From assembly GCA_949288955.1 (NCBI GenBank), contig CASEMS010000003.1, forward strand, positions 5,290 through 69,289: a stretch of 64,000 nt of DNA, written 5' to 3'. The notes below the pieces were generated by a model. It worked only from the letters and a program-made list of their open reading frames with translations. It was not told the origin of the DNA and ran no database searches. Each line of letters begins with the position of its first letter. Position 1 is the first letter of the stretch. The DNA comes from an uncultured Lentisphaeraceae bacterium. Its GTDB lineage: Bacteria; Verrucomicrobiota; Kiritimatiellia; RFP12; DVOR01. The position numbers were made by a program, and so were the translations under genes. Below are positions 1 to 64,000 of the stretch, in pieces.

Positions 1-2852
1 AGGGTGCCGGAGGCGTCGTCGCGCACGGCCTGGCAGGTTGGGGTGTTGGCAACGAGGTGGATGGGGGGCTCGCGGAGAAGGGCGGCGGGGTCGGCGATCT
101 CGGGGCGCATGTGGACGAGGTAGGCGACGGAGGCGTCCGTGGGTTGGGTGCCGTGGTCGACCCAGATCTCGAGGACGGTGGCGCGGCGGCCTTTGTCGGC
201 GAGCGCCTGGCATTTGGCCTTGTAGGCGACCATGTCCGGGGCGGGGTCGTCAAGGATGTGGGGGGCGAGGCGGTTGAGGGGGGTGCGGGGGGAGACGCGG
301 ACGTGGAGGGTGGCGTCTTTGTCCTCGGGGGCGGCGGAGGGCAGGATGAGGTAGCCAATGCCGGCGTGCTCCACCCAGAAACGCTGGGTGAGGGGATGGG
401 AGAGGTGGGCGTCCTCGGTGCCTTCGGGGATGGATTCCTCGGTGCCATCCTCCGCGCGGAGGGCGAGTGCGGCCGTGAAGGCGGCCTGGTTGAGGGTGCT
501 GCGGTAGGTGAAGGGAGCCTGCGCCGCCTTGCCGCCGGTGATGCCGCCACCGAGAACGAAGAGGCCATGCTCCAGGAAGACGAAGAGTTTGCGTGCGCGG
601 GTGGCGTTGCGCGGATGGCTGACGAACTCAAAGCCGCAGTGGCCGAGGCTGCCATCGCTGACGCCTCCGGCGCGTCTCCCTCCGCCCGCGCGATAGCGGT
701 CGAGGCCGCGGTATTTGTCATCGCTGCCCCATTCCTCGTCGAGCTGGGTGGTACCGGGGAGGGAGCGGAAGCGCCAGAGGGCGTCCGGGATGGTGTAGCG
801 GTGGAGCGCGCGGTACTCATCGCCCCGGCGCAGAAGGGTTGTTACACCGTCGCCGAAGGCGAGGTTGCCGGGGTTGGCCCCCGCGAAGGTCTCCACGCCG
901 CCGACGAGGGGGGAGGTGAGCTTGACGTCGATGTAGTAATCCTTGCGGCGGTGGACGGCCAGGAGTTGGCGAAAGAAAAAGCGGTTGCCCTCGATCGCGC
1001 CCTCGCCGCCGCGGACGCGCCCCAACAGCGCCTCGATCGCCGCGCGGGTCCCCTTCTCCAAGCATCCCTCCGGCAGGGCGAGGAGCCGCTGGGCGAAGAC
1101 GTGCGGGAAGACGCCTCGGTGCTCGTTGTGGCGGCCGTTGGCGCAGAAGGCCATCGCCCCGCGGTAGAGCACCCACTCATAGGCCAGGACATAGTCGGCC
1201 ACGCGGGCGTACTGCCGGCGCGACTCGCCCCACGGCGTGCCGGCGCGGGGGAAGCGCGTGGCGCGGATCGCCCAGTCACGGCCATAGGCGCCGAAGTTGA
1301 GCTGACGGCCATTGGCGGCGTGGAAGCTGAAGGTGGCGTCGCTCTCCATGCCGTCGAGGGTGCCGGGGCGGTAGGCGAAATGGTTGTCGTAGAGGCTGCG
1401 CGCGGCATCGTAGGCGAAGGGATCGTCCCAGAGCGCGGCGGCCGCCCAAGCCAATTCCATGAAGTTGTTGGCCTCGCCGTAACCGTCGTTCGTGCCGAGA
1501 TGCGTCTCATCGAGGAAGGAACGGCAGAGGATGGGGTCGGTGTTGCGCAGGGCCGCCACGCGCACGGCCAAGGCCTGACGTTGGAGCGCGGGCATCCGCA
1601 GGCAGGCCTCAAGGATCGGCCGCAACGCGATGGCGTCGGCCAAGAGCGCGCCATCCTGCAACCACAGGAAGCGCGGCCCGCCGTAGGCGGCGTGGGCGTG
1701 CGTGAAATAGGCCCCCGCCCACCGTAGCAGACGCGCCGCGGCCGCCTCCTCGCCCGTCGCGACGAAACGCGCCACAAGCGCCTTCGCGGCCGCGCGATAG
1801 GCCTCCGCCGTCGGCTCCTCGGGCGGTTCCTCCCCGAAATCCGGCGCGGCCCCGCCAAAGTTCAGGGCGCGATGGCGGAGATTCCCGGCGAAAGCCTCGT
1901 AGCAGGACTCCGCCGCAGAGGGCGTCAGGTGGAGAAAGCGCTCCGGCGGCACAGGCTCCCAGCCTTCGCCATCCGGCGTCCGCCACAACAGGGTGAACTC
2001 CGGCTCGGCCTCGCCCCGCCGCGCCAAGGTGACGGCGAAGGGCGTGACACCCGCCCGCAGACGCACGCGCTCCGCCCCCAGGCAACGCCGCCCATTGATG
2101 AGCAACTCCGCCGAACACACGGTCTCCAACTTGAAGCCATACTCCCCCGGACGGTCGGTCAGGAGAAAGCCCTCGACCCGCGCCGCCGCGTCCGCGCGGA
2201 GCAAATCCTGCACCGGGACGGCCAGCGTCCCCGCCGACTTGCCGAAGCGCAGGTCCTCGATGGGGCGATGCCAGTAATCCGGCAGACGGAAGGGGCCATT
2301 GCCGGGGTCGACGACGCTCTCGGCGGTGCGGAAAGGCGGATAATCCGCGGCGCCCGGCGCGAGCGCGGGGTCGGCGCCCACCGCGTGCGGGCCCGGACGG
2401 AAAGCCTTGGCCAGTGGCAGGGAGGGGGAATCGCCACGACGGATGATGCGCAGGAGCAGGCCGGGCGCGAGCGTCCCCGCCTTCGGCGCCACCGTCTCCA
2501 AGGTCAGCCGTTGGGTCTGCGGCAGGCCGTCCGGACGGGAGAAGACCGCCTCCAACGCCACCGTGCCGGGGCGAATCAGCCAGAAGCCGAGGTCGCACTG
2601 CGCGGCCGACCCTGCGTACCACACCGGCCCGCCGCCCTCCTCGCGCAACGTCACGTCCAGCCCACGCGTCGCGCGCGGGTGCGCCAACAACCGCACCCAT
2701 GCGCCTTGGGCGCCCGCCAGGCGCGGCCCCACCAACCGCCCGTTCGCCACAAGCATCCCCTGCGCCTTCACCTCGCGCCCCGCGCCAAGGGCGACCGCCG
2801 CCGAGGCCGCCACGCCCTGCGCCAGAAAGCGCCGCCGCGTCAGCCCATCCAT
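1..2852 (-). CDS. Tat-exported polysaccharide lyase family 8 (chondroitin AC/hyaluronate lyase-like) with N-terminal PA14-like domain; runs off the window start
   Basis: Hand translation from ATG 2852: twin-Arg signal MDGLTRRRFLAQGVAASAAVALGA; PA14-like ARVEGFLLTDRPGEYGFKLET; PL8-like DGMESDATFSFHAANGRQLNFGAYG, EGNRFFFRQLLAVHRRKDYYIDVK, GDGVTTLLRRGDEY, RSLPGTT, VANTPTCQAVR. Not in the ORF track because the stop lies outside the window. Confidence 0.8.
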   Translation of the reverse strand, partial: MDGLTRRRFLAQGVAASAAVALGAGREVKAQGMLVANGRLVGPRLAGAQGAWVRLLAHPRATRGLDVTLREEGGGPVWYAGSAAQCDLGFWLIRPGTVALEAVFSRPDGLPQTQRLTLETVAPKAGTLAPGLLLRIIRRGDSPSLPLAKAFRPGPHAVGADPALAPGAADYPPFRTAESVVDPGNGPFRLPDYWHRPIEDLRFGKSAGTLAVPVQDLLRADAAARVEGFLLTDRPGEYGFKLETVCSAELLINGRRCLGAERVRLRAGVTPFAVTLARRGEAEPEFTLLWRTPDGEGWEPVPPERFLHLTPSAAESCYEAFAGNLRHRALNFGGAAPDFGEEPPEEPTAEAYRAAAKALVARFVATGEEAAAARLLRWAGAYFTHAHAAYGGPRFLWLQDGALLADAIALRPILEACLRMPALQRQALAVRVAALRNTDPILCRSFLDETHLGTNDGYGEANNFMELAWAAAALWDDPFAYDAARSLYDNHFAYRPGTLDGMESDATFSFHAANGRQLNFGAYGRDWAIRATRFPRAGTPWGESRRQYARVADYVLAYEWVLYRGAMAFCANGRHNEHRGVFPHVFAQRLLALPEGCLEKGTRAAIEALLGRVRGGEGAIEGNRFFFRQLLAVHRRKDYYIDVKLTSPLVGGVETFAGANPGNLAFGDGVTTLLRRGDEYRALHRYTIPDALWRFRSLPGTTQLDEEWGSDDKYRGLDRYRAGGGRRAGGVSDGSLGHCGFEFVSHPRNATRARKLFVFLEHGLFVLGGGITGGKAAQAPFTYRSTLNQAAFTAALALRAEDGTEESIPEGTEDAHLSHPLTQRFWVEHAGIGYLILPSAAPEDKDATLHVRVSPRTPLNRLAPHILDDPAPDMVAYKAKCQALADKGRRATVLEIWVDHGTQPTDASVAYLVHMRPEIADPAALLREPPIHLVANTPTCQAVRDDASGT

Positions 2853-2973
2853 CGCGCATCTCGCAAAATCACGTTCATGGTCTCATCATACCACATCGCC
2901 GTGCGCGTGGCCTTGCCGTTGGGACGTGTCTGCCGCCCTGCGTTCTCCCAGAGGCAGAGGGGCTCAACGCCGA

Positions 2974-3826
2974 GACTTGGCGGCCGATCCACCGAGAGTC
3001 AGCCGCCAAGTCTCCTTGGGTCGGCCGCCGATCCTCCGCGAAGACGCGGCTGCGCCGGGACACGTCGGCGCTAACGCCGGGCACATCCGTGCCCTCGCCT
3101 TGCCCCGAAGCGCGAAGGCGGCGGGCGGGAGGGCGAAACAAGGGGGCGTCTCCGCCCCCGCCGCTTTCGCCCGGCGTTAGCCCGCCATCCTTCGCGCACC
3201 CTCGCGTCCTCGCGGGACAGAAAGCATCGGCGGCTGACTCTCCTCGGACTAGCGGCTGATCCACCGAGCGTCAGCCGCCAAGTCTCCTTGGGTCGGCCGC
3301 CGATCCTCCGCGAAGACGCGATTGCGCCGGGACACTCGGCGCTAACGCCAGGCACATCCGTGCCCTCCCGCGCCGAGTGCCCCGGCTTCGGGGGAGAGGG
3401 TACCTGGCCCCGAGGCGCGAAGGCGGCGGGCGGGAGGGCGAAACAAGGGGCGTTTCCGCCCCCGCCGCTTTCGCCCGGCGTTAGCCCGCCGTCCTTCGCG
3501 CACCCTCGCGTCCTCGCGGGACTGAAAGCATCGGCGGCTGACTCTCCTCGGACTAGCGGCCGATCCACCGAGCGTCAGCCGCCAAGTCTCCTTGGGTCGG
3601 CCGCCGATCCTCCGCGAAGACGCGGCTGCGCCGGGACACGTCGGCGCTAACGCCGGGCACATCCGTGCCCTCCTTCGGGGGAGAGGGTGCCTTGCCCCGA
3701 AGCGCGAAGGCGGCGGGCGGGAGGGCGAAACAAGGGGGCGTCTCCGCCCCCACCGCTTTCGCCCGGCGTTAGCCCGCCGTCCTTCGCGCACCTTCGCGTC
3801 CTCGCGGGACAAAAAGCATCGGCGGC
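2974..3826. repeat. Three tandem ~270-304 bp composite units: 22-bp palindromic repeats plus a 180-212 nt structured core (cores 3036-3215, 3308-3519, 3612-3807)
   Basis: Near-identical units start at ~2980, 3252 and 3556; each core is bounded by CCGCGAAGACGCG...CGCGTCCTCGCGG; a fourth copy lies at 10217-10430. Confidence 0.95.
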
Positions 3827-3877: not shown

Positions 3878-4777
3878 ATGGATTCCGGCGGGACGATTCG
3901 TTCGGGTTGGGCGGCGTGTCTCCTTGCCGTGACGGTGTGGGGGATGACGTTCGCGACGACCAAGCAGCTGTTGGCGGCGTTGCCGCCGACGGAAATCCTG
4001 TTGTTGCGCTTTCTTTTGGGCTATGCCGCGCTCTGGGCGCTCGCGCCGCGGCCTCTGCCGTGGCAGGGTTGGCGCGCGGAGGCGCGAATGGCCGTGGCGG
4101 GGGCGCTGGGCATCGCCCTCTATTTCCACTTCGAGAACCTGGCGCTGACGCACGCGCGGGCGGGGCTGGTGGCGGTGGTGGTCTGCACCTCGCCGCTGCT
4201 GACGGCCTTTTGCGCGCGGCTGATGGGGCGGACGCGGCGGTTGGGGCGTTGGTTCTGGGTGGGGCTCTTCCTGGCGTTGGCGGGGGTGGCGCTGACGGTA
4301 ACAGGTGGGGACGCGGGGGCGTTGCGCGGCGCGTGGCAGGGGGTGGCGCTTGGTTTGGCGGGGGCGGCGGTGTGGGCGGTCTACACGCTCCTGCCGTTGC
4401 CGGAGTCGGGGTTGGCGGTTACGCGCCGGACCTTCCTGTGGGGGTTGGTGGCGATGACGCCGCTTTGCCTGGCCGAGGCGGGGGCGTGGCGCATGGCGCC
4501 GCTCGCGGATTGGGGCAACGTCTGGCGGTTGTTTTTCCTGGGTTTGGTCGCCTCGGCGGTCTGCTACGCGGCATGGAACGCCGCGGTGGCGCGTCTGGGC
4601 GGCGTGCGCGCGGCGGTCTGCCTCTATCTGAACCCCGTGGTGGGCGTGGTCACGGCGGCGTTGCTCTTGGGCGAGCCGTTGGACGCGCCGACGTTGCTGG
4701 GCGTGGCCCTGACCCTTGGCGGCGTGGCCCTCTCCGCCCGCGCCCCCCATCCCGCCGCCCGCGCGGCGAAGGGCTGA
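3878..4777 (+). CDS. DMT/EamA family transporter
   Basis: ~10 hydrophobic helices; VWGMTFATTK, LLRFLLG, YLNPVVGVVTAALLLGEPL typical of two EamA repeats. Confidence 0.9.
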   Translation: MDSGGTIRSGWAACLLAVTVWGMTFATTKQLLAALPPTEILLLRFLLGYAALWALAPRPLPWQGWRAEARMAVAGALGIALYFHFENLALTHARAGLVAVVVCTSPLLTAFCARLMGRTRRLGRWFWVGLFLALAGVALTVTGGDAGALRGAWQGVALGLAGAAVWAVYTLLPLPESGLAVTRRTFLWGLVAMTPLCLAEAGAWRMAPLADWGNVWRLFFLGLVASAVCYAAWNAAVARLGGVRAAVCLYLNPVVGVVTAALLLGEPLDAPTLLGVALTLGGVALSARAPHPAARAAKG

Positions 4778-4805
4778 GCAGCTCCCCGCGCCACGCAAAA
4801 AGTCC

Positions 4806-4834
4806 TTGACTTGTCCGAAGAAAGAAGGTACGCT
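4806..4834 (+). promoter_or_regulatory. Sigma70-type promoter for the PEP-CTERM gene
   Basis: TTGACT-17 nt-TACGCT; AAGGA-type RBS before ATG 4884. Confidence 0.6.
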
Positions 4835-4883
4835 AAGGACAAATGAGGACGATTCGGGACCTCGGACAAGGAAGGACAGACAC

Positions 4884-5525
4884 ATGAACGGACGGCAGTT
4901 GATTTGTGCATTGGCGGTGGTTGGCGCGCTCGGAACCGCGCAGGCGGCCTCGCTGGATTGGAGCGCGACGCAGATCGCGGCGGAGGCCGGGACGACCTCC
5001 TCGCTCACCTCGCTTGGCGCGGGGAACGATTGGACGACGCTTTCGCTGGCCTTCGTCTTCACGGTCGGGGAGACGCAGACGGGCGGCCCGCGCCTCTCGG
5101 TGACCACCTCCGTCAACTCGGGCGCCTATCTTGGCGTGGGCGTGGCGGGTGCGAAGAACCAGGGACGGCTTTATCGGGACAACACCGCCACCTTCTACTC
5201 CCGCGGCACGATCCATGAGGGCACGAACGTGGTGGGGATGGTGATCGAGGTGGCGAACAATCGCCTGACGCTCCTCTCCTTTGACATCAACGGCACGACC
5301 TTCGGCCCCGCCGAGGTGGGCAGGGAGAACGGGTGCTACTACTCTGGGCAGACGGGGGCGATGACCATCGACTCGCTCACCGTCGCATTGGCTGAGAACG
5401 GCACGCTTTACCTCGCGGAAGGCGCGGCGACGGGCGAGGACTTCGCGGCATTGCCGGAGCCGACGGCGTTGGCGTTGCTGGCGCTGGGCGTGGCAGGGGT
5501 GGCGTTGCGGCGCAAGGTGGCGTAA
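4884..5525 (+). CDS. PEP-CTERM sorting domain surface protein
   Basis: Signal peptide MNGRQLICALAVVGALGTAQA; C-terminus LPEPTALALLALGVAGVALRRKVA (PEP motif, TM helix, basic cluster). Confidence 0.92.
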   Translation: MNGRQLICALAVVGALGTAQAASLDWSATQIAAEAGTTSSLTSLGAGNDWTTLSLAFVFTVGETQTGGPRLSVTTSVNSGAYLGVGVAGAKNQGRLYRDNTATFYSRGTIHEGTNVVGMVIEVANNRLTLLSFDINGTTFGPAEVGRENGCYYSGQTGAMTIDSLTVALAENGTLYLAEGAATGEDFAALPEPTALALLALGVAGVALRRKVA

Positions 5526-5544
5526 GGAAAGGCGCCGTCATGGT

Positions 5545-5590
5545 GCGCACCCCTCCCGTCCGCCAAGACGGGAGGGCGCGTTTGCGTTTT
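5545..5590 (+). terminator. Probable intrinsic terminator
   Basis: Stem CCCTCCCGTC/GACGGGAGGG followed by T-rich GTTTGCGTTTT. Confidence 0.6.
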
Positions 5591-5642
5591 GTGGCTTGGG
5601 CGTGGTGCGTGGGGTTGGCAGGGTCAAATGAAAGGGATTGCG

Positions 5643-8273
5643 ATGCGCGTGGCGCTTGGTGCGGCAGTGGTTTGGATGGCGGCGGTGGCTTCGGCGGCGA
5701 CCTTCGCGGGGGTGACGTGCTCGGATGGCGGGGTCTCGGCGGAGGTCCCGGCGGGGGCGGAGGTCGATGAGGCCGGGGCGTTGGTGTTGGGGGCGTCGCC
5801 GCTTCGGGTTACAGGCTTCGCGGCGGGTCATCCGGCGGTGGCGGTGACGTTCGACGCCACGTTGCCGGAGGGGGCGGAGGGGGCGCTCGTGGGATGGGAG
5901 ATGCGGCGGACGTCGGGGGAGGACCAAGGGACCTTCACGGCGCAGGCGGTGGCGGTCGCCTCGGGGGATCCGCTGACGCACGGCAACGCGCAGGCGCATC
6001 AGGACACGGTAACGCACGGGCGCCCCTCCGCGGGGCGGCATCTGTGGACGCTCACCTATTCCGCCTCGGCGGGCGCGGCGCTCTGGGAGGATGGCCGCCT
6101 GCTGGCGGAGGCGCCGGGCATCAAGTGGACCAACGCGCCGCTCACGGCGGTAACCTTCGGGGGGACGGCCCTGGGGGCGTCGCCGATCGCAGGTTTGCGT
6201 CTCCATGCGGCACGGGTGGACTTCGCGGAGACGGGTGTGCCGGAGAATCCGGTGGCGACGCTTTACGAGGTGCCGGAGGCGTTGCGCGGGTTGGGTGCGG
6301 GGCCGCTGATCCATCTGTTGCGGACGCAGGGTGGGCTGACCACGCCGTCGGTCTCGGTGAATGGGGAGGCGTTGGGCGCGCGCAACGCGGCGTTGGCGCT
6401 CTGGGCCTTTGGCTTGGGGACGGAGGGTGCGGTGGCGATGACCGTCGGGCGGTTGGCGGTCGGCGCGGAGGGCACGGTGTCGCTGACGCTCTCGGAGGAG
6501 ACACCGCCGTTGCGCAACGGTGCGCTCTCCTTGATCGGCGCACGCCGACTCGATGGGCCGTGGGAGCGGTTGGCGAGCGTCGCGGCGCCCATCGCCGCAG
6601 GGACGACGCTGGAGGCGGAGACGTCGGGGTGCGCCTTCTTCAAGGTTCGGGCGGAGGAAGCCGTCGGCGAGCCGGGGCCATTGGCGGCGCTTCGGGCGGA
6701 GGGCGCGGAGCGTCCGGTGTGGGCGGGGACGGGCGAGGCGACGTTGCTCGCCTTCACGCTGGCCGGGGAGCCGGAGGATTTGGACGGCGCGGACAGGGAA
6801 TCGCTGACGCTGACCCTGACGGGCGCGGGCGTCGTGCCGGGCGGGACGTACACGCTGACGGTGGACGGGGTGGCGCATCGAGCGGTGTTGGGGGCGGATG
6901 GGACGCTGACCTTCACCGGGCTCGCGCCGTATGTCGGCGCGGCGGTGTCGCTCGCGGGGCCGACCTCGGCGAACGGCGAGGTGACGGTGGCCGACTCTTC
7001 GTGGGGCGGGGCGGGCGCGCGGGCGCACATCGCGGCGGTGGTGGCAGACGATTTGGTGAAGGATGGCTTCGTGCCCGCGGATTGCGACCTGGCCACGGAG
7101 ATCACCTACGACGGCTACGACGCCACGATCTACCGCATCCCCGCCCTTGCCACGGACGGCGAGGGCGGCGTGGTCGCGCTCTACGACGTGCGCTATGGCA
7201 GCGGCGACCTCGGCGACAAACGGCTCAGCGGCATCGATCTGGGCGAGACCGTCAGCACGGACGGCGGCGCGACGTGGGGGAAGCCGCACCTGGCCGTCGA
7301 CGTGCCCAACTTCCGCGCCAACGACGGCAGCTACCCTTACGGCAAGGATCAGGGCGCGATCACGCCGGAGATGGACATCGGCGATGCCGCGATTCTCTTC
7401 GATCCCGCGGCGAAACGCTACTGGCTCATGGCCATCACCGGCGGCGGCCTCGTCTCCGCCGGGACCAACGCCGCCAAGAACGACTGCGTGCTCTACACGC
7501 GCGGCGTGGGGGCGGAGGCGAAGTGGGAGGGGCGGCGTTCCGTCAAAGCGGACATCCTCGCGGGCATCGGCAAGACGAACCACCCCGGGCACGGCGTCCT
7601 CGCCGGCCCCGGCCACGGCATGGTCACCCAGGTCGGCCACGCGGGGATGCCCAAGGGCACGCTCGTCTTCCCCGTCCAAGCCTTCGTGAACAGCGGCACC
7701 GGCGACGCGCAGTGCTGCGCCGCCTACTCCACCGACGGCGGCGCGACCTGGCAGACCACCGGCCTCACCCCCAAGACCCTCGCCCAGGCCCCCCACAACG
7801 CGCAGGAGAACTGCGTGATGGAGTTGGACGACGGTTCCTGGCTCATGATGTCCAAGGGCGGCACTTGGGGCGCGGGCAACGGACGCCGCCTCTTCTTCCG
7901 CACCACCGACTTCCGGAACTGGACGCAGCTCGCCTCCATCCCCAATGTCATCCACGTGCAAGGCTCCTGCCTGCGCATCGGCGTGGGGCCCGACGGGGTG
8001 GGTCGCTACGTGCTCGCCCATCAGACCGACCCCGGCACCCGCGCCGGGCTGGCGCTCGTCTTCGGGCGCGACCTCACCGCCGCCAACCCCGAGGCCGGGC
8101 AGGAAGGCGTGGCGTGGGACCTCGACAACCCCCTCATGCTGCACGCGGGCGAGACCGGCGGGCAGGGCTACGTCTCCCTCTGCCTGCTGGATTCCGAGAC
8201 CCTTGGCGTGCTTTACGAGGCCAAGAACCAGATACTCTTCGAGCGCATCGACCTTGCGCCCCACCTACGCTGA
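5643..8273 (+). CDS. Secreted exo-alpha-sialidase (GH33) with long N-terminal accessory domains
   Basis: Signal peptide; YRIP motif; Asp boxes STDGGATW (x2) and TTDFRNW; GPGHG; QENCVMEL; GYVSL...GVLYE at the end. Alternative start 5628. Confidence 0.88.
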   Translation: MRVALGAAVVWMAAVASAATFAGVTCSDGGVSAEVPAGAEVDEAGALVLGASPLRVTGFAAGHPAVAVTFDATLPEGAEGALVGWEMRRTSGEDQGTFTAQAVAVASGDPLTHGNAQAHQDTVTHGRPSAGRHLWTLTYSASAGAALWEDGRLLAEAPGIKWTNAPLTAVTFGGTALGASPIAGLRLHAARVDFAETGVPENPVATLYEVPEALRGLGAGPLIHLLRTQGGLTTPSVSVNGEALGARNAALALWAFGLGTEGAVAMTVGRLAVGAEGTVSLTLSEETPPLRNGALSLIGARRLDGPWERLASVAAPIAAGTTLEAETSGCAFFKVRAEEAVGEPGPLAALRAEGAERPVWAGTGEATLLAFTLAGEPEDLDGADRESLTLTLTGAGVVPGGTYTLTVDGVAHRAVLGADGTLTFTGLAPYVGAAVSLAGPTSANGEVTVADSSWGGAGARAHIAAVVADDLVKDGFVPADCDLATEITYDGYDATIYRIPALATDGEGGVVALYDVRYGSGDLGDKRLSGIDLGETVSTDGGATWGKPHLAVDVPNFRANDGSYPYGKDQGAITPEMDIGDAAILFDPAAKRYWLMAITGGGLVSAGTNAAKNDCVLYTRGVGAEAKWEGRRSVKADILAGIGKTNHPGHGVLAGPGHGMVTQVGHAGMPKGTLVFPVQAFVNSGTGDAQCCAAYSTDGGATWQTTGLTPKTLAQAPHNAQENCVMELDDGSWLMMSKGGTWGAGNGRRLFFRTTDFRNWTQLASIPNVIHVQGSCLRIGVGPDGVGRYVLAHQTDPGTRAGLALVFGRDLTAANPEAGQEGVAWDLDNPLMLHAGETGGQGYVSLCLLDSETLGVLYEAKNQILFERIDLAPHLR

Positions 8274-8281
8274 GGGGAACG

Positions 8282-10081
8282 ATGAAACGATCGCGTCTTC
8301 CGCTTGCCGCGCTCTGCGCCTTGCTCGCCCTGCCCCTCGCCGCCGTGGGGCGGTCGCCCGACGCCTTGCTCTGGATGCCGTGGGGCGACTCCATCACCGA
8401 GGGCGAGCGCGACATGGGCCACCCCGACCGCGGCGACGCCAACAGCCGCGGCGGTTACCGCTTCCAACTCTGGCGGGAACTCACCGAGGCGGGCCTGACG
8501 GTGCGGAGCGTCGGCTTCCGGACGGGCCACCAAGGCACGGAGGAGGTGGCGGAGAATCCCGCGTGGGCCTGGCATTGCGGCCTCTACGGCGGGCTGATCC
8601 ACCCCGCCAAAGGGAGAAAATACGGCGCGCAACGCTTCAACGTCGAGAGCGCGTTGGAGCACGCCGGGCACCCCGACGTCATCACCCTCCTGCTCGGCAT
8701 CAACGACCTCTCCTTCCTGCCCTCCGACGACCCCGCCGGCATCCGCGGCGTCTTCGCCTCCTGGGTCGCCCTGGCCTGCCGCCTCGCCGACCTCCGCCCG
8801 CACAGCCAGGTGGTCGTCGCCACCCTGCTGCCCGTCCGCCCCGGCAACCCATCGGCCAAACGCTTCGGCCCCTTCAACGCCCTCATCCGCGCCGCGGCCG
8901 AGGCGAAGGCGCCACCCTTCGACCGCCCGAACGTCCGCCTCGCCGACCTCTGCCGCCTCGCCTTCGCCGACGCCTTCGACGCGACCCTCTTCAAGCCCGA
9001 CGGCGTCCACCCCAACGAGGCCGGCAGCATCCGCGTCGCCCAAGCCTGGCGCCCCGCCTTTGACGAGGCGCTTCGCGCCTTGGAGGCCACGCCGCCCGCC
9101 ATCGTCCACCTCCACAACGGCGTCCCCGGGCAGGTGCGCGTGCGTCTCAACCGACCGGCCACGGCCTTCGCCGGCGCCACGCTCGCGTTGGGCGGCGGGC
9201 CGACCCTCCTGGGCGGCGCGCCCGATCCGCGCGACCCCCGCGTCCTCGTCTTCCCCTGCGCCACGCCCTTCCGCAACGGCAACGTCGCCTCCGCCACCCT
9301 CACCCACGGCGCGACGCGCCTGAAAGCCGCCCCCGACGCGATCGAACTGCTCGGCAGCGGCGCGGAGGCGAACGTCCCCGAGGCCTTCCGTCGCGGCTTC
9401 GTGCGGTTGCAGGCCCTTGACCTCGGCAAACCCGCCACCGCCCCGACCGCCCCGCTCGGCGGCCTCATCCGCCGCGTGGCCTACTACCTTGAACTCAAAC
9501 GGCCCGGCCTGCCGCCGCAGTTCGTCTGGGTCTCGATGGATGCCGCGCCCTTCGGCAACGACCCCGCGCGGGCCGATCTCCCCATCCTCGGCGACCGCCC
9601 CATCAAGGCGGAGGTCGGTAACCTTTCCGTCTTCGGCAATCGCGGCAACTTCGCCAAGTCCGTCCACGGCGGGCGCGGCCTCGTCGAGATCACGCCCTTG
9701 GGTTATGCCGCCGACGACGACCCCGCCGCCGTGGCCGAGGCCACGCCCGGCGCCTTCGGCTGGAACGATGCGCTCCGTGAAGACGGCGCGGGCTACGGTT
9801 GCCTCCAGGTGGCCCGGATCCGCGAAGACGCGGCCGGCACGCCCGCCGACCCCGCCGCCGAGATGCTCTTGGCCTACAACGGCTTCCGCTCCGGCCGGGA
9901 CGCCGACGCCGGGATCGGCTCCTTCGTCACCCATCGCGACAACCTCGGCAGGCAGATCGACGCCGTCCACGATTGGACCTTCTTCGCCCGCCTCACCGGT
10001 TACGCCGCCTACGCCCCCGCCGCCTACGAACGCCGCCTCCTGGAAATCTGGGCCGAGCCGCTCCTGCCCTCCGCGCCCTGA
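8282..10081 (+). CDS. Secreted SGNH/GDSL esterase, probably sialate O-acetylesterase-like, with C-terminal beta domain
   Basis: GDSIT, LLGINDL and DGVHPN catalytic blocks; signal peptide MKRSRLPLAALCALLALPLAA; starts 8 nt after the sialidase stop. Confidence 0.8.
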   Translation: MKRSRLPLAALCALLALPLAAVGRSPDALLWMPWGDSITEGERDMGHPDRGDANSRGGYRFQLWRELTEAGLTVRSVGFRTGHQGTEEVAENPAWAWHCGLYGGLIHPAKGRKYGAQRFNVESALEHAGHPDVITLLLGINDLSFLPSDDPAGIRGVFASWVALACRLADLRPHSQVVVATLLPVRPGNPSAKRFGPFNALIRAAAEAKAPPFDRPNVRLADLCRLAFADAFDATLFKPDGVHPNEAGSIRVAQAWRPAFDEALRALEATPPAIVHLHNGVPGQVRVRLNRPATAFAGATLALGGGPTLLGGAPDPRDPRVLVFPCATPFRNGNVASATLTHGATRLKAAPDAIELLGSGAEANVPEAFRRGFVRLQALDLGKPATAPTAPLGGLIRRVAYYLELKRPGLPPQFVWVSMDAAPFGNDPARADLPILGDRPIKAEVGNLSVFGNRGNFAKSVHGGRGLVEITPLGYAADDDPAAVAEATPGAFGWNDALREDGAGYGCLQVARIREDAAGTPADPAAEMLLAYNGFRSGRDADAGIGSFVTHRDNLGRQIDAVHDWTFFARLTGYAAYAPAAYERRLLEIWAEPLLPSAP

Positions 10082-13837: not shown

Positions 13838-13850
13838 GAGAGGAGGACAG

Positions 13851-53845: not shown

Positions 53846-53852
53846 GGGAGGG

Positions 53853-54296: not shown

Positions 54297-54299
54297 GGG

Positions 54300-55070
54300 T
54301 CAGTCCCTGAAGCCGAGGACGTCGCGCATGTCGTAGAGCCCGGGCGCGCGGCCTTGGAGCCACTGGGCGGCCTTGATGGCGCCCTTGGCGAAGGCGGCGC
54401 GGGAGGAGGCTTTGTGGGTGATCTCGACGCGTTCCTCGTCGGCGGCGAAGAGGACGGTGTGGTCGCCCACCACCGAGCCGCCGCGGAGGGCGTGGACGCC
54501 GATCTCGCCGCGGGGGCGCTCGCCGACGATGCCGTGGCGGCCATAGACGGCCACCGCGTCCAGGGAGACGCCGCGTCCCTCGGCGAGGGCGTTGGCGAGG
54601 CCCAGGGCGGTGCCGCTGGGGGCGTCCTTCTTGTGGCGATGGTGCATCTCGACGATCTCGGCGTCGTAGCTGTCATCCAGGACGGTGGCGGCGCGGCGGA
54701 CGAGTTCGAGGAGGAGGTTCACGCCGAGGGAGAAGTTGGGCGCGAAGCAGAGGGGAAGGGTCTTGGCGGCCTCATCCACGGCGGCGCGTTCCTCGGGGGT
54801 GAGGCCAGTGGTGCCGAGCACGTAGGCTTGGCGGTTGGCGGCGGCGGCCCGGAGGTTGGGGATGACGCAAGTGTGGAAGGTGAAGTCGATGACGGTGTCG
54901 GCCTCGGCGGGCCAGGCTTCCTGATAGACCAGGCCGGGCGCGGCGGGTTGGCCGATGTGGGGGGAGCCGGGGGCCTCGGTGACGGCGACGACCTCAAGGC
55001 CCTGTTCCTTGGCGCAGGCGAGGAGCATCTGCCCCATGCGGCCGGCGCCGCCCAAGATGGCGAGTTTCAT
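54300..55070 (-). CDS. dapB: 4-hydroxy-tetrahydrodipicolinate reductase
   Basis: GGAGRMG, IDFT, GTTG, NFSLGVN, EMHHRHKKDAPSGTA. Confidence 0.96.
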   Translation of the reverse strand: MKLAILGGAGRMGQMLLACAKEQGLEVVAVTEAPGSPHIGQPAAPGLVYQEAWPAEADTVIDFTFHTCVIPNLRAAAANRQAYVLGTTGLTPEERAAVDEAAKTLPLCFAPNFSLGVNLLLELVRRAATVLDDSYDAEIVEMHHRHKKDAPSGTALGLANALAEGRGVSLDAVAVYGRHGIVGERPRGEIGVHALRGGSVVGDHTVLFAADEERVEITHKASSRAAFAKGAIKAAQWLQGRAPGLYDMRDVLGFRD

Positions 55071-55080
55071 GCGCGGTTCC

Positions 55081-55959
55081 TCACTGGATGAGCCCCAGAC
55101 CGCGCAGGCAGGCGCGGATCGTCTCGGTGCTCGCCTCGTCGGGCGGGCAGAGGGGCAGACGGTAGACGGGGTGGATCTTGCCCATCATGCCGAGCGCGGC
55201 CTTGACGGGGATCGGGTTGGTGTCGCAGAAGAGATCGCGGAAGAGGCCGTAGTACCGCTCGTGATACTCACGGGCCTTCACGAAGTCGCCATCCAAGGCG
55301 AGGTTCACCATCTCGGACATCGCACGCGGGATGACGTTGGAGGCCACGGAGATGACGCCCTGCGCGCCCACCGCCAACATGGGGAGGGTCAGCGCATCGT
55401 CGCCGGAGAGGATGGTGAGGTCGGGGCAGAGGTGGCGGATGGCCGAGACGCGGTCGACGCTTCCGGCGGCCTCCTTGATGGCACAGACGTTGGGGTGCGC
55501 GGCGAGGCGCGCCACGACGGGGAGCGGGATCTCCTTGGCGCTGCGGCCGGGCACGTTGTAGAGCACCACGGGCAGGCCGAGATCGGCGACGGCGGCGAAG
55601 TGGCGGTAGAGGCCCTCGGCGTTCGGCTTGTTGTAGTAAGGGGTCACCTGCAGGGTGGCATCGACGCCCAGACCGAGGATCTCCTTGGTGAGGTGGATGG
55701 CCTCCTCGGTGGAGTTGGCGCCGGTCCCGGCGATGATCCGGGCCTTGCCGGCGACGGCATCGACGGTCGCCTCGATGACCTTGAGGTGGTCGGCGGGGCT
55801 GAGCGTGGGGCTTTCGCCGGTGGTGCCGACGGGACTCACGCCCGCGACGCCCTCCGAGATCTGCCACTGGATGAGCGCGCGCAGGGCGCCGTAGTCCACG
55901 GAGCCATCCGTGTTGAAGGGCGTTACGAGTGCGCTGAAGACACCTTTGAGTTTGAGCAT
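55081..55959 (-). CDS. dapA: 4-hydroxy-tetrahydrodipicolinate synthase
   Basis: ALVTPF, GTTGES, PYYNKP, YNVPGR, IKEA, SGDD, TNPIPVK. Confidence 0.96.
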   Translation of the reverse strand: MLKLKGVFSALVTPFNTDGSVDYGALRALIQWQISEGVAGVSPVGTTGESPTLSPADHLKVIEATVDAVAGKARIIAGTGANSTEEAIHLTKEILGLGVDATLQVTPYYNKPNAEGLYRHFAAVADLGLPVVLYNVPGRSAKEIPLPVVARLAAHPNVCAIKEAAGSVDRVSAIRHLCPDLTILSGDDALTLPMLAVGAQGVISVASNVIPRAMSEMVNLALDGDFVKAREYHERYYGLFRDLFCDTNPIPVKAALGMMGKIHPVYRLPLCPPDEASTETIRACLRGLGLIQ

Positions 55960-55999
55960 GGGGCTGTTTCCTTTGGCGGCACAGTATAGCACAGGCCGC

Positions 56000-57715
<1,716 letters not shown>

Positions 57716-57916: not shown

Positions 57917-58594
57917 ATGAAGATTTCCATTCTGCCTTCGTTGTTGGCGGCCGACCAGGGCCGACTGAGGGATGAGATCGCGCGGGTGGTGGCCTCGGGC
58001 GCGGACGCGCTCCACCTGGACGTGATGGACGGCCATTTCGTCCCCAACCTCTCCTTCTCCCCGGACACGGCGGCGCTCTGCCGCAAAACGCTGCCGGAGG
58101 GCTTCGCGCTGAACACCCATCTGATGATGACCAACCCCGACGCCTACGCCACCCGCTTCGCGGAGAAAGGGAGCACCACCGTGCAGTTCCATCTGGAGCT
58201 GCGCGACACGGTGAACGTCCGCGCCCTGGCCGCGGCCTTGGAGGCGCGCAACGTGCGCGTGGGGCTGGCGCTGAACCCCGAGACCCCGGCGGAGGTGGCC
58301 TTCCCTTACCTGGACGTGGCCGACGAGGTGCTCTGCATGACCGTCCACCCCGGCTACGGCGGCCAGGCCTTCATCGCCGAGGTGCTGCCGAAGATCGCGG
58401 CGTTGCGCAAGCGCGCGCCGGCCCTGGACATCATGGTGGACGGCGGCGTGAACGCGGAGACGGCGGTTTTGGCCGCCCGGGCGGGCGCCAACGCCTTCGT
58501 GGCCGGCTCCTTCCTCTTCGCCCAGGCGGACATGGCGGCGGCGGTGGCCGACCTGCGGGCACGCTGCGAGGCGGCCTTCGGCCAAGGCCTCTGA
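57917..58594 (+). CDS. rpe: Ribulose-phosphate 3-epimerase
   Basis: PSLLAAD, HLDVMDGHFVPN, HLM, LNPETP, MTVHPGYGGQ, VDGG. Confidence 0.96.
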   Translation: MKISILPSLLAADQGRLRDEIARVVASGADALHLDVMDGHFVPNLSFSPDTAALCRKTLPEGFALNTHLMMTNPDAYATRFAEKGSTTVQFHLELRDTVNVRALAAALEARNVRVGLALNPETPAEVAFPYLDVADEVLCMTVHPGYGGQAFIAEVLPKIAALRKRAPALDIMVDGGVNAETAVLAARAGANAFVAGSFLFAQADMAAAVADLRARCEAAFGQGL

Positions 58595-58611
58595 GCGCGT
58601 GGGGGGGGTGC

Positions 58612-60057
58612 ATGGCAACGACGCGCGCGTCCAAGGAGTTGGCCCGCTTCCCCGTCGGCGGGCTCTTGTGGAAGTATTCCGTGCCCGCGATTGTGGGCAT
58701 GTTGGTGATGGCGCTCTACAATGTGGTCGACCGCCTCTATGTGGGGCGGTGCGTGGGGCCGGACGGCTTGGCGGGCTTCGCCCTCACCTTCCCGCCGATG
58801 ATGGTGATGCTGGCCTTCGGCCTCCTGCTGGGCGTGGGCACGGCCACGCGCATCTCCATCGCGATGGGGCAGGGAAAACGCTCCGTGGCGCAGTGCTACC
58901 TGGGCCAGGCGGTGTGCATCTACCTCCTGCTCTCGGTGCTGGTCTACCCCATCTGCGCCCTCTTCGTGGAGCCGCTCTTGGCGGCGACGGGGGGGACGGC
59001 GGCGACGATCCCGCCCGCGGCCGATTACCTCCGCATCGTCTTCTGGTGCGCGGCCTTCCAGTATCTCTCCTTCGGACTGAACCACACAATCCGCGCGGAG
59101 GGCCATCCCACCAAGGCCCTCATGACGATGCTCATCGGCGCGGTGCTCAACGCGATCCTCGACCCCTTCTTCATCTTCGACGAGGTGCCGCTGGGCTTCT
59201 GCACCGTGCCCGGCCTGGGGCTGAAAATCCAGGGCGCGGCCATCGCCACCTGCATCTCGCAGGCGGTCTCGATGGTGTGGGTGCTGGCGCACTTCCTGCG
59301 CCCCTCGGCGGAGCTTCGGCTGAAGATCGGCTTCGTGCGGCTCTACAAGCCGCTCCTCTGGGGCGTGGTGGTGGCCGGCCTCCCGCCCTTCGCCCTCAAC
59401 CTGGTGGGCAGCGCCATCACCGCGCTCTACAACATCCTCTTCAAGGCCTACGCGCCGACCGAGGCCATCGCGGGGCGCGAGATCGCCTCCATCGGCATCG
59501 TCATGACGGTGCAGATGCTCGTCTGCATGCCCGTGCTGGGCGTGGCGCAGGGGATGCAGCCCATCCTCGGCTTCAACTACGGCGCGCGGAACTACCGCCG
59601 GATGCGCCGCACCTTCCATCTGGCGACGTGGTGGGGCGGCGGCTACATCGCCGTGATGTCGGCGCTCGTGCTCCTCTTCCGCCGCCCGCTCTTCCTGCTC
59701 TTCTGCAAGGAGGAGATGGCGGCCGACCTGCTGGCGGTGGGGCCCTCGGAGATGGCCATCTTCTTCTGCGGCTTCACCTTCGTGGGCTACGCGATCCTCG
59801 TGGGGCAGTATTTCCAGAGCATCGGCCGCGGGGGCGTGGCGTTGGCGATGAGCCTCTCGCGCCAATGCTTCCTGCTCGTGCCGCTGATGCTCCTTCTGCC
59901 GCGGGTGATGGAGCCGCACCTCGGCGTCTGGTGGGCCGCGCCGATCTCCGACGTCCTCTCCGTGCTCATGGCCGTGGGCTTCCACGTCTGGGAGCACCGC
60001 CGCCTCAACCGCCTCATCGCCGCGCAGGACGCCGCCCGCGCCCCCTGCCTGGCCTGA
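58612..60057 (+). CDS. MATE family efflux transporter (MepA-like)
   Basis: YNVVDR, RAEG, NAILDP, GAAIAT, QPILGFNYGA, LSRQ. Confidence 0.93.
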   Translation: MATTRASKELARFPVGGLLWKYSVPAIVGMLVMALYNVVDRLYVGRCVGPDGLAGFALTFPPMMVMLAFGLLLGVGTATRISIAMGQGKRSVAQCYLGQAVCIYLLLSVLVYPICALFVEPLLAATGGTAATIPPAADYLRIVFWCAAFQYLSFGLNHTIRAEGHPTKALMTMLIGAVLNAILDPFFIFDEVPLGFCTVPGLGLKIQGAAIATCISQAVSMVWVLAHFLRPSAELRLKIGFVRLYKPLLWGVVVAGLPPFALNLVGSAITALYNILFKAYAPTEAIAGREIASIGIVMTVQMLVCMPVLGVAQGMQPILGFNYGARNYRRMRRTFHLATWWGGGYIAVMSALVLLFRRPLFLLFCKEEMAADLLAVGPSEMAIFFCGFTFVGYAILVGQYFQSIGRGGVALAMSLSRQCFLLVPLMLLLPRVMEPHLGVWWAAPISDVLSVLMAVGFHVWEHRRLNRLIAAQDAARAPCLA

Positions 60058-60071
60058 CGAAAGGAGCCCCC

Positions 60072-61712
60072 ATGCGCCTCGCCGCCCTCACCGCCGCCCT
60101 CTGCCTCGCCGCCGCGCTCCGCGCCGCCACGCTCCCGATCGACGCCCTGCCGCCGACCTTCCTGCGCGGCGAACGCCCCGCCGCCTGGCCCGAGGGCCTC
60201 ACCGTGGTGGAATGCTGGGCGCGCTGGTGCGGCCCCTGCGTCCGCGCCATGCCGCACCTCGAAGCCCTCCATCGGGAACTCAAGGGTGAGGGCGTCCGCG
60301 TCATCGGCGTGAATGTCTGGGACAAGGGCACCGACCAGGAGATCCTCGACTTCCTCGCCAAACAGCCCACGCCGCCCACCTACGCCATCGCCGTCGACCG
60401 CGCCGACGCCCTGCCCAAGCGTCTGGGCCTCAAAGGCATCCCGCACGCCCTCGTCGTCCGCGCGGGCGAGATCGTCTGGCAGGGCCACCCCGCCACCCTC
60501 ACCGCCGAGCGCCTCCGCGCCCTCCGCGACGGCCGACCCGAGCAGGCCGCCAAGAAGGCCGACCCCCTGGCCGCCATCCGCGACCTCGAGGCCCAGGCCG
60601 ACGCCGCCGCCGCGCGGGGCGACTGGGACGCCGCCGCGGCCTTCCAGCGCCAAGCCTTCATGTCCCTCCCCGGCCTCCCCGAATCCTACAAGGAGGTGGA
60701 CGTCAATTGGGAGGATCCCGCCCTCGCCCCTTACGCCGCCCCGCCCGTGGGCGAGACCACCGAGGCTGGCGACGCCGCCCCCTACGCCGCCCTCGTCGGC
60801 CCCCTCCCCGCCGATGGCGTGCCGACCCTCGTGGCCTACTGGCCCAATCCCTTCTGGGTCTCCAAGCTCACCTGGGCCACCCTCGCCTCCCTCCCCGACC
60901 GCCGCGTGGCCAAGGCCCTGCCCTATCCCCACCGCACCCTGACCCTCGCCCCCGCCAAGGCGCGCCCGCACCTCGAAAAACTCCTCGCCCCCCTCGCGTG
61001 GCGCAAGGCCCCCCTCTTCTTCGCCCAGCAGGTGGATGAGACGCTCTTCGGTGTCACGGACCGCCACAACCCGCCCTACGTCGCCTACTTCCGCGATGGG
61101 CGTCTCCTCTGGAAGGGCCCGCTTGAGACGATGCCCGCCGCCCTCCGCGCCAAGGAGCCGCCCACGACCCCCGAGGCCGTCCGCGCCGCCGTCGCCGAGG
61201 AGACGGCCCGCACGGAAACGCTCTCCGCCTGCTTCGCCCGCCTCACCAAGGCCAAGACCCCCGAGGAACGCGCGAAGGCCCTGGCCGAGATCGACGCCAT
61301 CCGCCCCCTTCCGCGCGGTTGGGGCGCGCTCCTCATGCCCCACTTCCTCTCCGAGGCCTACCTCGCCAAGGACGTCCCCGCCGGCCTCGCCCGCGCCAAC
61401 GCCCTCCTCGACCGCTTCAAGGACGACGCCGGCGCGCTGGAGATGCTCCGCAAGGTCATCGACGCCTGGCCGGAGCTCGCCCTCGAGGCCACCAAACTCC
61501 GCTGCGACCTCGCCCTGCGCCTGGGCGAGCTCAACGACCGCGACGACCCCGCCTACGCCCAGGCCTGGGTCAACGTCGCCGCCGAGGAGGCCACCCGACT
61601 GGGCAAGAAGAATTTGGTGGACTTCCTGCGCTTCCGCGCCTGCGTGGCCTCCCCCACCGCCTGCCGCCTCGCCCAATTCCTCCACCGCCTCCCCGCCCTC
61701 CCCGCCCGCTGA
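60072..61712 (+). CDS. Exported TlpA/thioredoxin-family protein with a second degenerate Trx-like domain and helical C-terminus
   Basis: Signal peptide; [21 protein letters not shown]...WQGHP; AAGGAG RBS. Confidence 0.8.
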
Positions 61713-61725
61713 CCGCGCCCCCTGA

Positions 61726-61808
61726 GGATCGGGGGCCGATCCACCTCGGCTCAGCGGCTGATCGACCTCGGATCAGCCGCCGATTCACCTCGGCTCAGCG
61801 GCCGATCC
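61726..61808. repeat. 22-bp palindromic repeat array (4 units)
   Basis: Units at 61726, 61748, 61770, 61792. Confidence 0.9.
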
Positions 61809-61825
61809 TGATTGAGGCGGCCCGG

Positions 61826-61885
61826 CGTGCCACGGGGTGGCACGGTTGGCAGGGTGTGCCACGGGTGTGCCACATGGATGGCACG
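61826..61885. promoter_or_regulatory. Cluster of TGCCA/TGGCA sites, putative enhancer (UAS) for a sigma54 activator
   Basis: Perfect IR CGTGCCAC-GGG-GTGGCACG at 61826-61844; further half-sites at ~61846, 61856, 61867, 61878. Confidence 0.6.
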
Positions 61886-61925
61886 GAGGGCGACGCAAAC
61901 GACCATTCCCGGGGCTGTCGGGGAA

Positions 61926-61942
61926 TTGGCACAGGTCTTGCA
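61926..61942 (+). promoter_or_regulatory. Sigma54 (-24/-12) promoter of dnaK
   Basis: TTGGCAC-AGGTC-TTGCA matches TGGCAC-N5-TTGCW; 48 nt upstream of ATG. Confidence 0.8.
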
Positions 61943-61990
61943 AAGGGTGGCGTAAGCACGCGGCGACCCCGCGACGAAAGGAAAACACTT

Positions 61991-63889
<1,899 letters not shown>

Positions 63890-63949
63890 CCTCGCGGGGC
63901 GGGGGCCTCCCCCGCCCCACCCCACCCTTTAAGAAAGGAACGACACACC

Positions 63950-64000
63950 ATGTCCAAGAAACCCGCAATCCGCCCGCTGGGCGACCGTGTCCTCGTCCTG
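63950..64000 (+). CDS. groES: Co-chaperonin GroES (5' end only)
   Basis: MSKKPAIRPLGDRVLV; AAAGGAA RBS; truncated by the window end. Confidence 0.9.
   Translation, partial: MSKKPAIRPLGDRVLVL

Follow-up and report, generated by a model that had tools for sequence, protein, structure and literature searches.

Operon-scale G/C skew gradients at synonymous sites in a Kiritimatiellae genus

The stretch of DNA analysed here, called the window, is 64 kb of a 2.25-Mb assembly (88 contigs, 68% G+C, 93% complete; G000:C3:5290-69289) from an uncultured Lentisphaeraceae bacterium. The nearest named relatives of the source genome are gut metagenome-assembled genomes labelled Kiritimatiellae, Lentisphaeraceae or 'Candidatus Spyradenecus'. 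Among the genes of the window are those for glycan degradation (BNR/sialidase-like, GH20, fucosidase, and alpha-galactosidase enzymes), together with an RND efflux operon, a DnaK gene, and genes with housekeeping roles. An earlier note, made from the letters alone, had described a saw-tooth of G/C skew along it, in which the + strand drifts from G-rich to C-rich and then snaps back, mostly at arrays of a 22-bp repeat. This saw-tooth is real in the window, holds genome-wide, and is best explained as the 5'-to-3' polarity of transcription units, reset where a new transcript starts.

Gene calls require some care here. A plain codon model left 26% of the genome without a gene call, mostly at extreme skew. 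The calls used here come from a codon model that is blind to G versus C at the third position, with starts picked by score; it gave 1,667 genes and a coding fraction of 86%. Of the window genes scanned, 24 of 28 had Pfam matches on the called strand, including the G-rich EamA, Dus, Lgt, exosortase, and TetR genes. Skew at four-fold degenerate sites is read in the coding sense unless the + strand is stated. An operon-like unit is a set of same-strand genes with gaps of at most 50 nucleotides (nt); 711 such units were used. The half-gene statistic compares the four-fold skew of the 5' half of a gene with that of its 3' half.

Measured over 1 kb, the GC skew of the window ranges from +0.326 (30.5-31.5 kb) to -0.316 (38.5-40 kb). 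Hand counts given in the earlier note for six 60-nt lines were exact in all six cases (5701-5760 G32/C16; 7741-7800 G13/C32; 30901-30960 G36/C12; 39961-40020 G12/C35; 27181-27240 G13/C32; 27541-27600 G33/C10). With 700-nt flanks, nine C-to-G jumps of at least 0.30 were found, at 3850, 10420, 18200, 27290, 30360, 36830, 40470, 51930, and 61710. They match nine of the 12 resets originally listed; the other three, at about 4.8, 53.8, and 57.8 kb, do not reach 0.30. Arrays are present at six of the nine jumps and absent from three (27290, 36830, and 51930), in agreement with the array-free resets that had been placed at about 27.35, 36.85, and 51.9 kb. The description of a slow drift followed by a snap needs one amendment, as the nine upward jumps are accompanied by six fairly sudden downward steps of -0.30 or more. 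The largest + strand jump in the window, 0.60 at 27290, compares with a maximum of 0.53 after shuffling of 100-nt blocks. This window-level control is weak; significance is carried by the genome-wide statistics.

The units of the window, described by gene calls, four-fold skew, and Pfam matches, are as follows. The + run at 3929-10081 begins with an EamA transporter (+0.37) and continues with a 204-aa gene (+0.11), the BNR/sialidase-like gene (+0.05), and a GDSL hydrolase (-0.47). The next + run (10601-17865) goes through +0.27, +0.37, +0.28, +0.19 (Dus), -0.42 (DUF362), -0.27, and -0.51. The - run at 18191-27319, read from right to left, starts at +0.33 (phosphoesterase) and +0.40, passes -0.25 (starch synthase-like) and -0.40 (amylase-like), and descends to -0.73, so that on the + strand it is G-rich on the left and C-rich on the right. 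It is followed at 27364-30113, also on the - strand, by a fucosidase (-0.22) and then an alpha-galactosidase (-0.50). Two + runs come next, the first at 30424-36792 (+0.55, +0.24 for an exosortase, +0.35, -0.20, -0.21, and -0.43 for TrkH) and the second at 36850-40319 (+0.14 for Lgt, -0.25, -0.69 for a radical SAM/TRAM gene, and -0.76), with the reset at 36830 between them lacking an array. The efflux operon lies on the - strand at 40506-47709 and reads, right to left, TetR +0.29, -0.20, AcrB -0.40, OEP -0.57, and -0.47. A predicted intrinsic terminator on the same strand, with a 13-bp stem and a T run (40458-40487), stands just 3' of it and adjoins an array. The GH20 pair on the + strand (48037-51835) is C-rich from its start, with four-fold skews of -0.51 and -0.56, just as had been reported. 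The - run at 51917-57715, right to left, contains a GlnS/GluRS-type synthetase (-0.21), genes at -0.40 and -0.58, HPPK (-0.73), an array, and a HAD/radical-SAM gene (-0.52). The last + run (57941-63889) consists of a gene at -0.07, MatE (-0.10), a thioredoxin-like gene (-0.46), an array, and DnaK (-0.18).

Thus, read in the coding sense, the same-strand runs of the window start G-rich or neutral and end strongly C-rich, + and - alike, with the GH20 pair as the exception, and in 25 of the 26 window genes that are 900 nt or longer the 5' half exceeds the 3' half in G-richness. The skew had been called independent of orientation. This is true on the + strand; in the coding sense, both strands simply run from a G-rich 5' end to a C-rich 3' end, and + and - operons look alike on the + strand because such a gradient is its own reverse complement.

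Genome-wide calculation of four-fold skew, a check that had been proposed together with the description, shows a steady fall with position in the unit. Over the 711 units, skew is -0.045 in the first 500 nt and then -0.20, -0.32, -0.39, and -0.46, and past 5 kb it is down to about -0.65. Of the 868 genes that are 900 nt or longer, 85% have their more G-rich half at the 5' end (p 3.5e-100), with both strands behaving alike (86% of 464 + genes and 84% of 410 - genes), and on the + strand the skew of both gene classes falls from left to right. When G/C choice was permuted within genes, the mean half difference was -0.005 and 49% of genes had the more G-rich 5' half, compared with an observed difference of 0.214.

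A scenario without any positional process is that codon heterogeneity between genes, caused by expression or foreign origin, happens to be ordered along operons by chance and is combined with gene orientation. Genes are indeed heterogeneous: around a mean coding-sense four-fold skew of -0.31, gene-level skew has a standard deviation of 0.42, where sampling would give 0.07. Orientation alone accounts for 36% of the variance of + strand four-fold skew and orientation with position for 52%, sampling noise being about 4%, and about 48% is explained by neither. Nevertheless, the gradient exists inside single genes, runs continuously across gene junctions, and recurs in the orthologous ribosomal-protein clusters of relatives, and we consider chance ordering highly improbable.

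The junctions between genes show which unit carries the gradient. Where neighbouring genes are at most 20 nt apart (382 pairs), skew is -0.353 before and -0.371 after the junction, which is no jump. Wider gaps bring jumps of +0.07 (21-60 nt), +0.37 (61-150 nt), and +0.59 (>150 nt), and in the 152 pairs with a gap above 150 nt skew goes from -0.50 to +0.12. A terminator-like hairpin in the gap makes the jump larger by +0.146 ± 0.069. Grouped by gene arrangement, the jumps are +1.0 to +1.3 at convergent, +0.4 to +0.75 at tandem, and -0.3 to +0.1 at divergent borders. The gradient ignores the borders of open reading frames (ORFs) inside operons and resets at large gaps and terminators. Codon bias rises along genes in many organisms, and selection on codons at the level of translation, either as a long ramp or as growing selection against wasted translation with C-ending codons preferred, would agree with the dominance of C-ending codons here. 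It is largely refuted by the junction test, as ORF starts inside operons bring no reset. Moreover, non-coding spacers shift too, the gradient spans up to 18 kb in a ribosomal-protein cluster, and the 5' ends of long units reach +0.40, beyond what relaxed selection would give. A translational origin is accordingly very unlikely in our view.

Skew at a site varies with its distance to the start and to the end of the unit, and the gradient is drawn out as units get longer. A joint fit to the 361 units whose borders are credible gave b_start -0.68 and b_end +0.44, with R2 of 0.21 and 0.10 for the two distances singly and 0.28 together. Mean unit skew is about -0.33 at every length in these units. 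With rising length the first 600 nt go from -0.19 to +0.30 and the last 600 nt from -0.22 to -0.70; in the 89 units with a divergent start and a convergent end, the corresponding changes are from -0.08 to +0.40 and from -0.34 to -0.78. Profiles drawn against relative position nearly overlap (0.11 to -0.63 at 3-5 kb, 0.29 to -0.69 at 5-8 kb, and 0.19 to -0.81 above 8 kb), and short units are flat. Positive skew at unit starts is confined to long units (+0.25 to +0.40), short ones starting at about -0.1 to -0.2. Divergent and tandem unit starts did not differ in skew (-0.051 ± 0.044), and a modest excess of C was seen at convergent unit ends (-0.14 ± 0.048).

In long units the two ends are complementary in composition, as would be expected if G-rich 5' parts and C-rich 3' parts of the mRNA paired at long range, a possibility raised in the earlier note. 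This is the only point in its favour. The mean skew of -0.33 is not zero, so the halves are not complementary in amount; short units are flat; and translated bacterial mRNA is covered by ribosomes. Of the explanations considered here, long-range pairing is the least credible.

In sequence terms, the gradient is largely synonymous, as had been stated. Skew moves from -0.05 to -0.69 at four-fold sites, from 0.24 to 0.15 at codon position 1, and from -0.15 to -0.22 at position 2, the latter two shifting slightly in the same direction as the first. Along the unit, the frequencies at four-fold sites change from 0.44 to 0.15 for G and from 0.49 to 0.80 for C, with AT skew flat at about -0.46. All eight four-fold codon families shift in parallel, their G/(G+C) going from 0.32-0.61 to 0.07-0.22. 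Amino-acid use changes as well (K, E, G, and V fall; P, L, T, and D rise), and short spacers inside operons go from +0.02 to -0.24. On the 3' side of stop codons, skew is back to zero within about 50-100 nt. Since codon families, spacers, and amino acids all shift alike, the pressure acts on the nucleotides of the transcribed sequence and not on particular codons or tRNAs.

The distribution of the gradient was followed through congeners, other families of the order, and loci of other bacteria of the Planctomycetes-Verrucomicrobia-Chlamydiae (PVC) group. By the half-gene statistic, based on 60-138 kb per genome, it is present in seven of eight sampled congeners: G004 (half-gene difference 0.25; 5' half more G-rich in 87% of genes), G009 (0.22; 81%), G007 (0.19; 76%), G022 (0.18; 81%), G010 (0.16; 78%), G016 (0.13; 82%), and G006 (0.12; 82%). 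The eighth, G012, shows no difference (42%). In four other families of the order the gradient is weak or absent (5' half more G-rich in 40% for G036, 63% for G030, 54% for G033, and 50% for G034). Pooled over 47 loci of other PVC bacteria (339 genes), the difference is 0.022, ten times smaller, and high G+C is no predictor; this is an imperfect control, as it uses self-trained gene calls (loci with coverage below 70% being dropped) in which strand errors would flatten a gradient. The gradient is a trait of this Kiritimatiellae genus.

The ribosomal-protein cluster of the source genome (G000:C48:2377-20704) forms one 18-kb gradient, from +0.75 and +0.50 in the first genes to -0.9 in the last. 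In the relatives, reading frames were taken from tblastn matches to the source genome's own proteins, since a caller that was self-trained on one 20-kb locus at a time had put several ribosomal-protein loci on the wrong strand. A gradient of this length is limited to the nine closest genomes of the genus, which also have the highest G+C at third codon positions (GC3), and it suggests very long read-through transcription or shared control in that subclade. A score from the cluster splits the genus into nine genomes at -0.39 to -0.91 and 12 at -0.22 to +0.28. As a classifier of the gradient, however, the cluster fails, and with it a tight link to position 62 of Rho (see below), for the 'negative' sisters G009 and G016 have the gradient within genes. 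G025, a member of another family of the order, has a strong ribosomal-cluster gradient of its own (0.69 to -0.96); in this genome, which is only 87% complete, searches with the Rho RNA-binding family, the Rho of the source genome, and MutS gave no match.

The 22-bp arrays are the other conspicuous feature of the unit borders. According to Tandem Repeats Finder (TRF) and a search for the repeat core, three lie in the divergent gap at 2999-3607 (2999-3031, 3227-3303, and 3531-3607) and two in the tandem gap at 10114-10496. Single arrays occupy convergent gaps at 18045-18077 and 40351-40449 and divergent gaps at 30297-30329 and 47868-47922, the latter with no G-rich start on its right side. Tandem gaps hold the longest array of the window, with about 7.5 copies (53655-53819), and another at 61751-61805. 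Of the array also claimed at 57.8 kb, one exact core and two cores with two mismatches can be found, and TRF calls no array. Genome-wide there are 966 copies of the core with no more than one mismatch, and 877 of them fall in the 14% of the DNA that is non-coding; cores are spaced by 22 bp 345 times, which gives 244 arrays. About half or more of the gaps that measure 300 nt or longer contain arrays, whatever the gene arrangement (tandem, convergent, or divergent).

Gaps with an array jump by about 0.3 more than array-free gaps of equal size (tandem 0.73 versus 0.40, p 6e-5; divergent +0.10 versus -0.32, p 0.003), and a causal role of the arrays in the resets at first looked positive on this evidence. 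It was ruled out by a model that includes gap size and unit length, in which an upstream array had no positive effect on 5' G-richness (-0.106 ± 0.059), and by the 24 intragenic cores, at which no skew reset was seen. Hence the statement that resets lie mostly at arrays is correct as to location and not as to cause: the arrays are intergenic repeats that share their location with unit borders, fillers and not drivers of the reset. The same data bear on a DNA process blind to gene orientation, such as repair synthesis, recombination tracts, or a translocase, that would start at borders or arrays and leave a G-rich strand on both sides. The component of the saw-tooth that is reverse-complement symmetric and centred would fit such a process, as would a mean unit skew that stays the same at any length and the larger jumps at array gaps. 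Yet the units behave as operons and follow operon structure and terminators, divergent boundaries flip little (-0.32 to +0.10), and a constant coding-sense offset of about -0.3 means that the direction of transcription matters. The comparison of related genomes, also proposed as a check on the repeat, adds that congener G012 has 22-bp arrays and lacks the gradient. The earlier suggestion of a bidirectional process starting at boundaries or arrays is thereby not supported, and we judge any boundary-anchored process of this type to be unlikely.

In layout, the arrays resemble repetitive extragenic palindromic (REP) elements and bacterial interspersed mosaic elements (BIME), in that short, near-palindromic units are arrayed between genes in all arrangements. 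Across the genus (loci L006-L013 and L126-L131), the 22-bp arrays have very different, often palindromic consensus units in each species, as if the repeat and a binding partner co-evolved fast. The array at 40351-40449 differs in length by 23 nt between strains, at 40431.

Taken together, the data exclude replication skew, a translational ramp for each ORF, plain heterogeneity of genes, and the arrays as the cause. What remains is a process tied to the transcription unit, which could be selection on the composition of nascent RNA or a mutation bias linked to transcription. The reading that we favour, tentatively and with the expectation that it may well prove wrong, is a position-dependent pressure on nascent RNA that results from a trade-off between Rho loading and R-loops; every functional step in it is one we infer. 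C-rich, G-poor RNA is the loading substrate of Rho. Premature termination would be costlier the more of the operon remains to be transcribed, and G might thus be favoured near the 5' end, more so in long operons. G-rich RNA, in turn, forms more stable RNA:DNA hybrids (R-loops), a hazard that may grow with the transcript and with torsional stress behind the polymerase, and C would be favoured downstream. The distal parts of units, C-rich and G-poor at four-fold sites (C 0.80, G 0.15), have a composition like that of Rho utilization (rut) sites, where Rho might load. A bolder version, which we regard as rather doubtful, is a composition code scaled to operon length, in which graded synonymous G/C would set the susceptibility to Rho and to R-loops by position, with the primary RNA-binding site of Rho co-evolving.

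The competing explanation is that G is lost from, or C added to, the non-template strand during transcription, for example through preferential, Mfd-dependent transcription-coupled repair of the template strand, with a strength that varies with the distance travelled by the polymerase or with local transcription flux. Composition would then be at the equilibrium set by mutation. Such a bias would give the same unit-level behaviour as selection and would move all site classes alike, and spacers and positions that alter the amino acid do move with the rest. Codon families shift to a uniform extent, at about -1.4 to -1.9 logit units, as would suit a bias without regard to context. An mfd gene was found in all 41 genomes searched, and the trait is quick to change within the genus: G012 lacks it, and altered repair machinery could have such an effect. 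On the other hand, transcription in the sense direction cannot perceive the distance to the terminator, yet 5' skew follows unit length, also where the unit borders are unambiguous, and an extra assumption such as length-scaled flux or processivity would be needed. In addition, the flat AT skew at four-fold sites leaves no visible asymmetry of the simple C-to-T deamination type, and mfd and mutS (37 of 41) are the same with and without the gradient. Dependence of skew on the distance still to be transcribed, together with scaling to unit length, follows more easily from selection, and selection is for this reason put first, with mutation bias close behind as a possible though not a probable explanation.

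Several observations concern Rho and terminators directly. A rho gene, whose presence was one of the points to be checked, is found in the source genome (G000:C10:315-2048, locus L016). Terminator-like hairpins with a T run follow 67% of convergent and 22% of tandem gene ends, compared with 11% in an antisense control. At convergent ends they are readable on both strands (67% sense, 63% antisense; for example, 40458-40487), and these hairpins look like bidirectional intrinsic terminators in a 68% G+C genome. The residue of Rho aligned to position 62 of the Escherichia coli protein, the first aromatic of the GFGF motif, is I, I, S, F, C, C, C, C, and C in the nine closest high-GC3 genomes. The aromatic side chain is therefore lost in eight of nine genomes of this highest-GC subclade, where any of three other residues replaces it. 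F or Y stands at this position in 26 of 27 others, namely 16 of 16 other congeners and 10 of 11 genomes from other families (loci L240-L269). The five genomes with C at this position have a one-residue deletion just before it. The E. coli F62S mutant of Rho is a primary-site mutant described as extremely defective in RNA binding in the available portion of its report (PMC4150792). Repeated loss at position 62 in the genomes whose transcripts are most C-rich suggests that Rho may have adapted to this composition and that transcript C-richness and Rho interact.

A number of findings weigh against the trade-off between Rho loading and R-loops. Intrinsic terminators are common, and the unit ends that have one are more C-rich (-0.65 versus -0.48). 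C-rich 3' ends are consequently no substitute for intrinsic terminators, and C-richness is not needed for termination; the idea in the earlier note that codon choice is tuned to make transcripts sensitive to Rho near unit ends survives in an altered form only, with rho present and this result opposed to it. RNase HI (PF00075), an enzyme that clears RNA:DNA hybrids, had no match in 39 of the 41 genomes of the order, 28 of the 41 being at least 90% complete, which would suit the R-loop side of the reading, but it is equally missing from the families of the order that are free of the gradient. More generally, none of the candidate genes separated genomes with the gradient from those without it (mfd 41/41, mutS 37/41, RNase HI 2/41, and the Rho RNA-binding domain 40/41). 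The changes at position 62 are confined to the subclade, and the gradient also occurs in sisters that retain F or Y (G009, 0.22; G016, 0.13), so the Rho change is not its cause. Finally, selection and mutation bias would lead to one and the same composition at equilibrium, orientation and position leave about 48% of the variance of + strand four-fold skew unaccounted for, and exceptions such as the GH20 pair exist.

No description of an operon-scale gradient of GC skew in bacteria was found in the full-text literature searched, the coverage of which does not extend to subscription journals; this agrees with the remark in the earlier note that no account of it at such a scale in bacteria was known to its author. 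The gradient belongs with the compositional asymmetries associated with transcription and is unusual among them in size, shape, and lineage restriction. Such asymmetry is regarded as a small effect that varies little along a gene and goes together with a shift to T over A, and Francino and Ochman reportedly attributed the coding-strand skews of bacteria to deamination of the non-template strand and transcription-coupled repair. The present case shares a sign of the skew that follows the transcribed strand (orientation, 36% of + strand variance). It differs in changing by about 0.6 to 1.0 along the unit, in involving G and C only with a flat AT skew, and in being two-ended. A uniform asymmetry of the deamination type (G over C with T over A) is not what is seen, as the coding strand here is C-rich overall and AT skew stays at -0.46.

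Replication skew resembles the saw-tooth in the polarity of the flip, C to G being the change met at an origin. It would follow the direction of replication and switch only at origin and terminus. The saw-tooth flips dozens of times per 64 kb, nine times by at least 0.30 in the window; its amplitude at four-fold sites reaches 1.0 or more, and the flips are tied to operon borders and gene orientation. In eukaryotes, GC skew at the 5' and 3' ends of genes is said to have been linked to R-loops by Ginno et al., and skew near the transcription start sites of plants and fungi is described in the accessible part of another study (PMC555766). Shared with these systems are the tie to transcript starts and ends instead of replication and the R-loop rationale; their skew peaks within about 1 kb of the start site and is mostly non-coding or in CpG islands, whereas here it is bacterial, operon-wide, and located in synonymous codons.

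Intragenic codon gradients also make synonymous choice depend on position. In the excerpt available of one survey (PMC6892556), they cover tens of codons, apply to each ORF, and include an avoidance of C-ending codons at prokaryotic gene ends. Compared with what that excerpt gives, the gradient here covers kilobases, has the operon as its unit, does not restart at start codons, and has its peak of C-ending codons at the 3' end. Core and gene transfer agent (GTA) genes of Rhodobacterales show local GC-skew peaks of a few hundredths, with G-rich codon choice on the leading strand and deamination disfavoured as the cause, according to the portion at hand of PMC9836097. Both cases involve local skew through the choice between G- and C-containing synonymous codons; the peaks in that portion are region-level, with neither a 5'-to-3' gradient nor a reset per operon. 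Selection that favours cheaper nucleotides where DNA is transcribed, as outlined in the part of PMC4844684 consulted, could explain a general excess of C over G on the coding strand. In that outline it predicts an offset dependent on expression and not a positional gradient.

Position in the operon changes the odds of G versus C about five-fold, and up to about twenty-fold in long units, which is larger than most known effects on codon usage. Synonymous sites are usually read as the product of genome-wide mutation bias and translational selection; here, operon position matters. If selection is responsible, bacteria could tune the fate of transcripts, through Rho and R-loops, by means of silent sites across whole operons, and a composition code, if true, would add a new level of information to what bacterial coding sequence is known to carry. 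If mutation is responsible, the genus would provide a natural read-out of transcription-linked damage and repair along the transcription unit, which is hard to measure directly. In practical terms, the gradient predicts operon borders in this genus from sequence alone. It also breaks standard gene finders and will bias statistics of codon adaptation and horizontal transfer.

Two further features of the window deserve mention. Within the + run at 10601-17865, a 1.2-kb segment (13851-15030) has a strong excess of G and T (GC skew +0.28, AT skew -0.49) and lacks a confident gene call; neither its 431-aa + ORF nor its 360-aa - ORF had a Pfam match. Contigs of four DNA runs show 744 differences from the window, and 40 of these were available for inspection. 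In the first GH20 gene, the contigs of three runs skip 60 nt at 48222-48283 and one run has 21 other letters there, which is a strain-level replacement.

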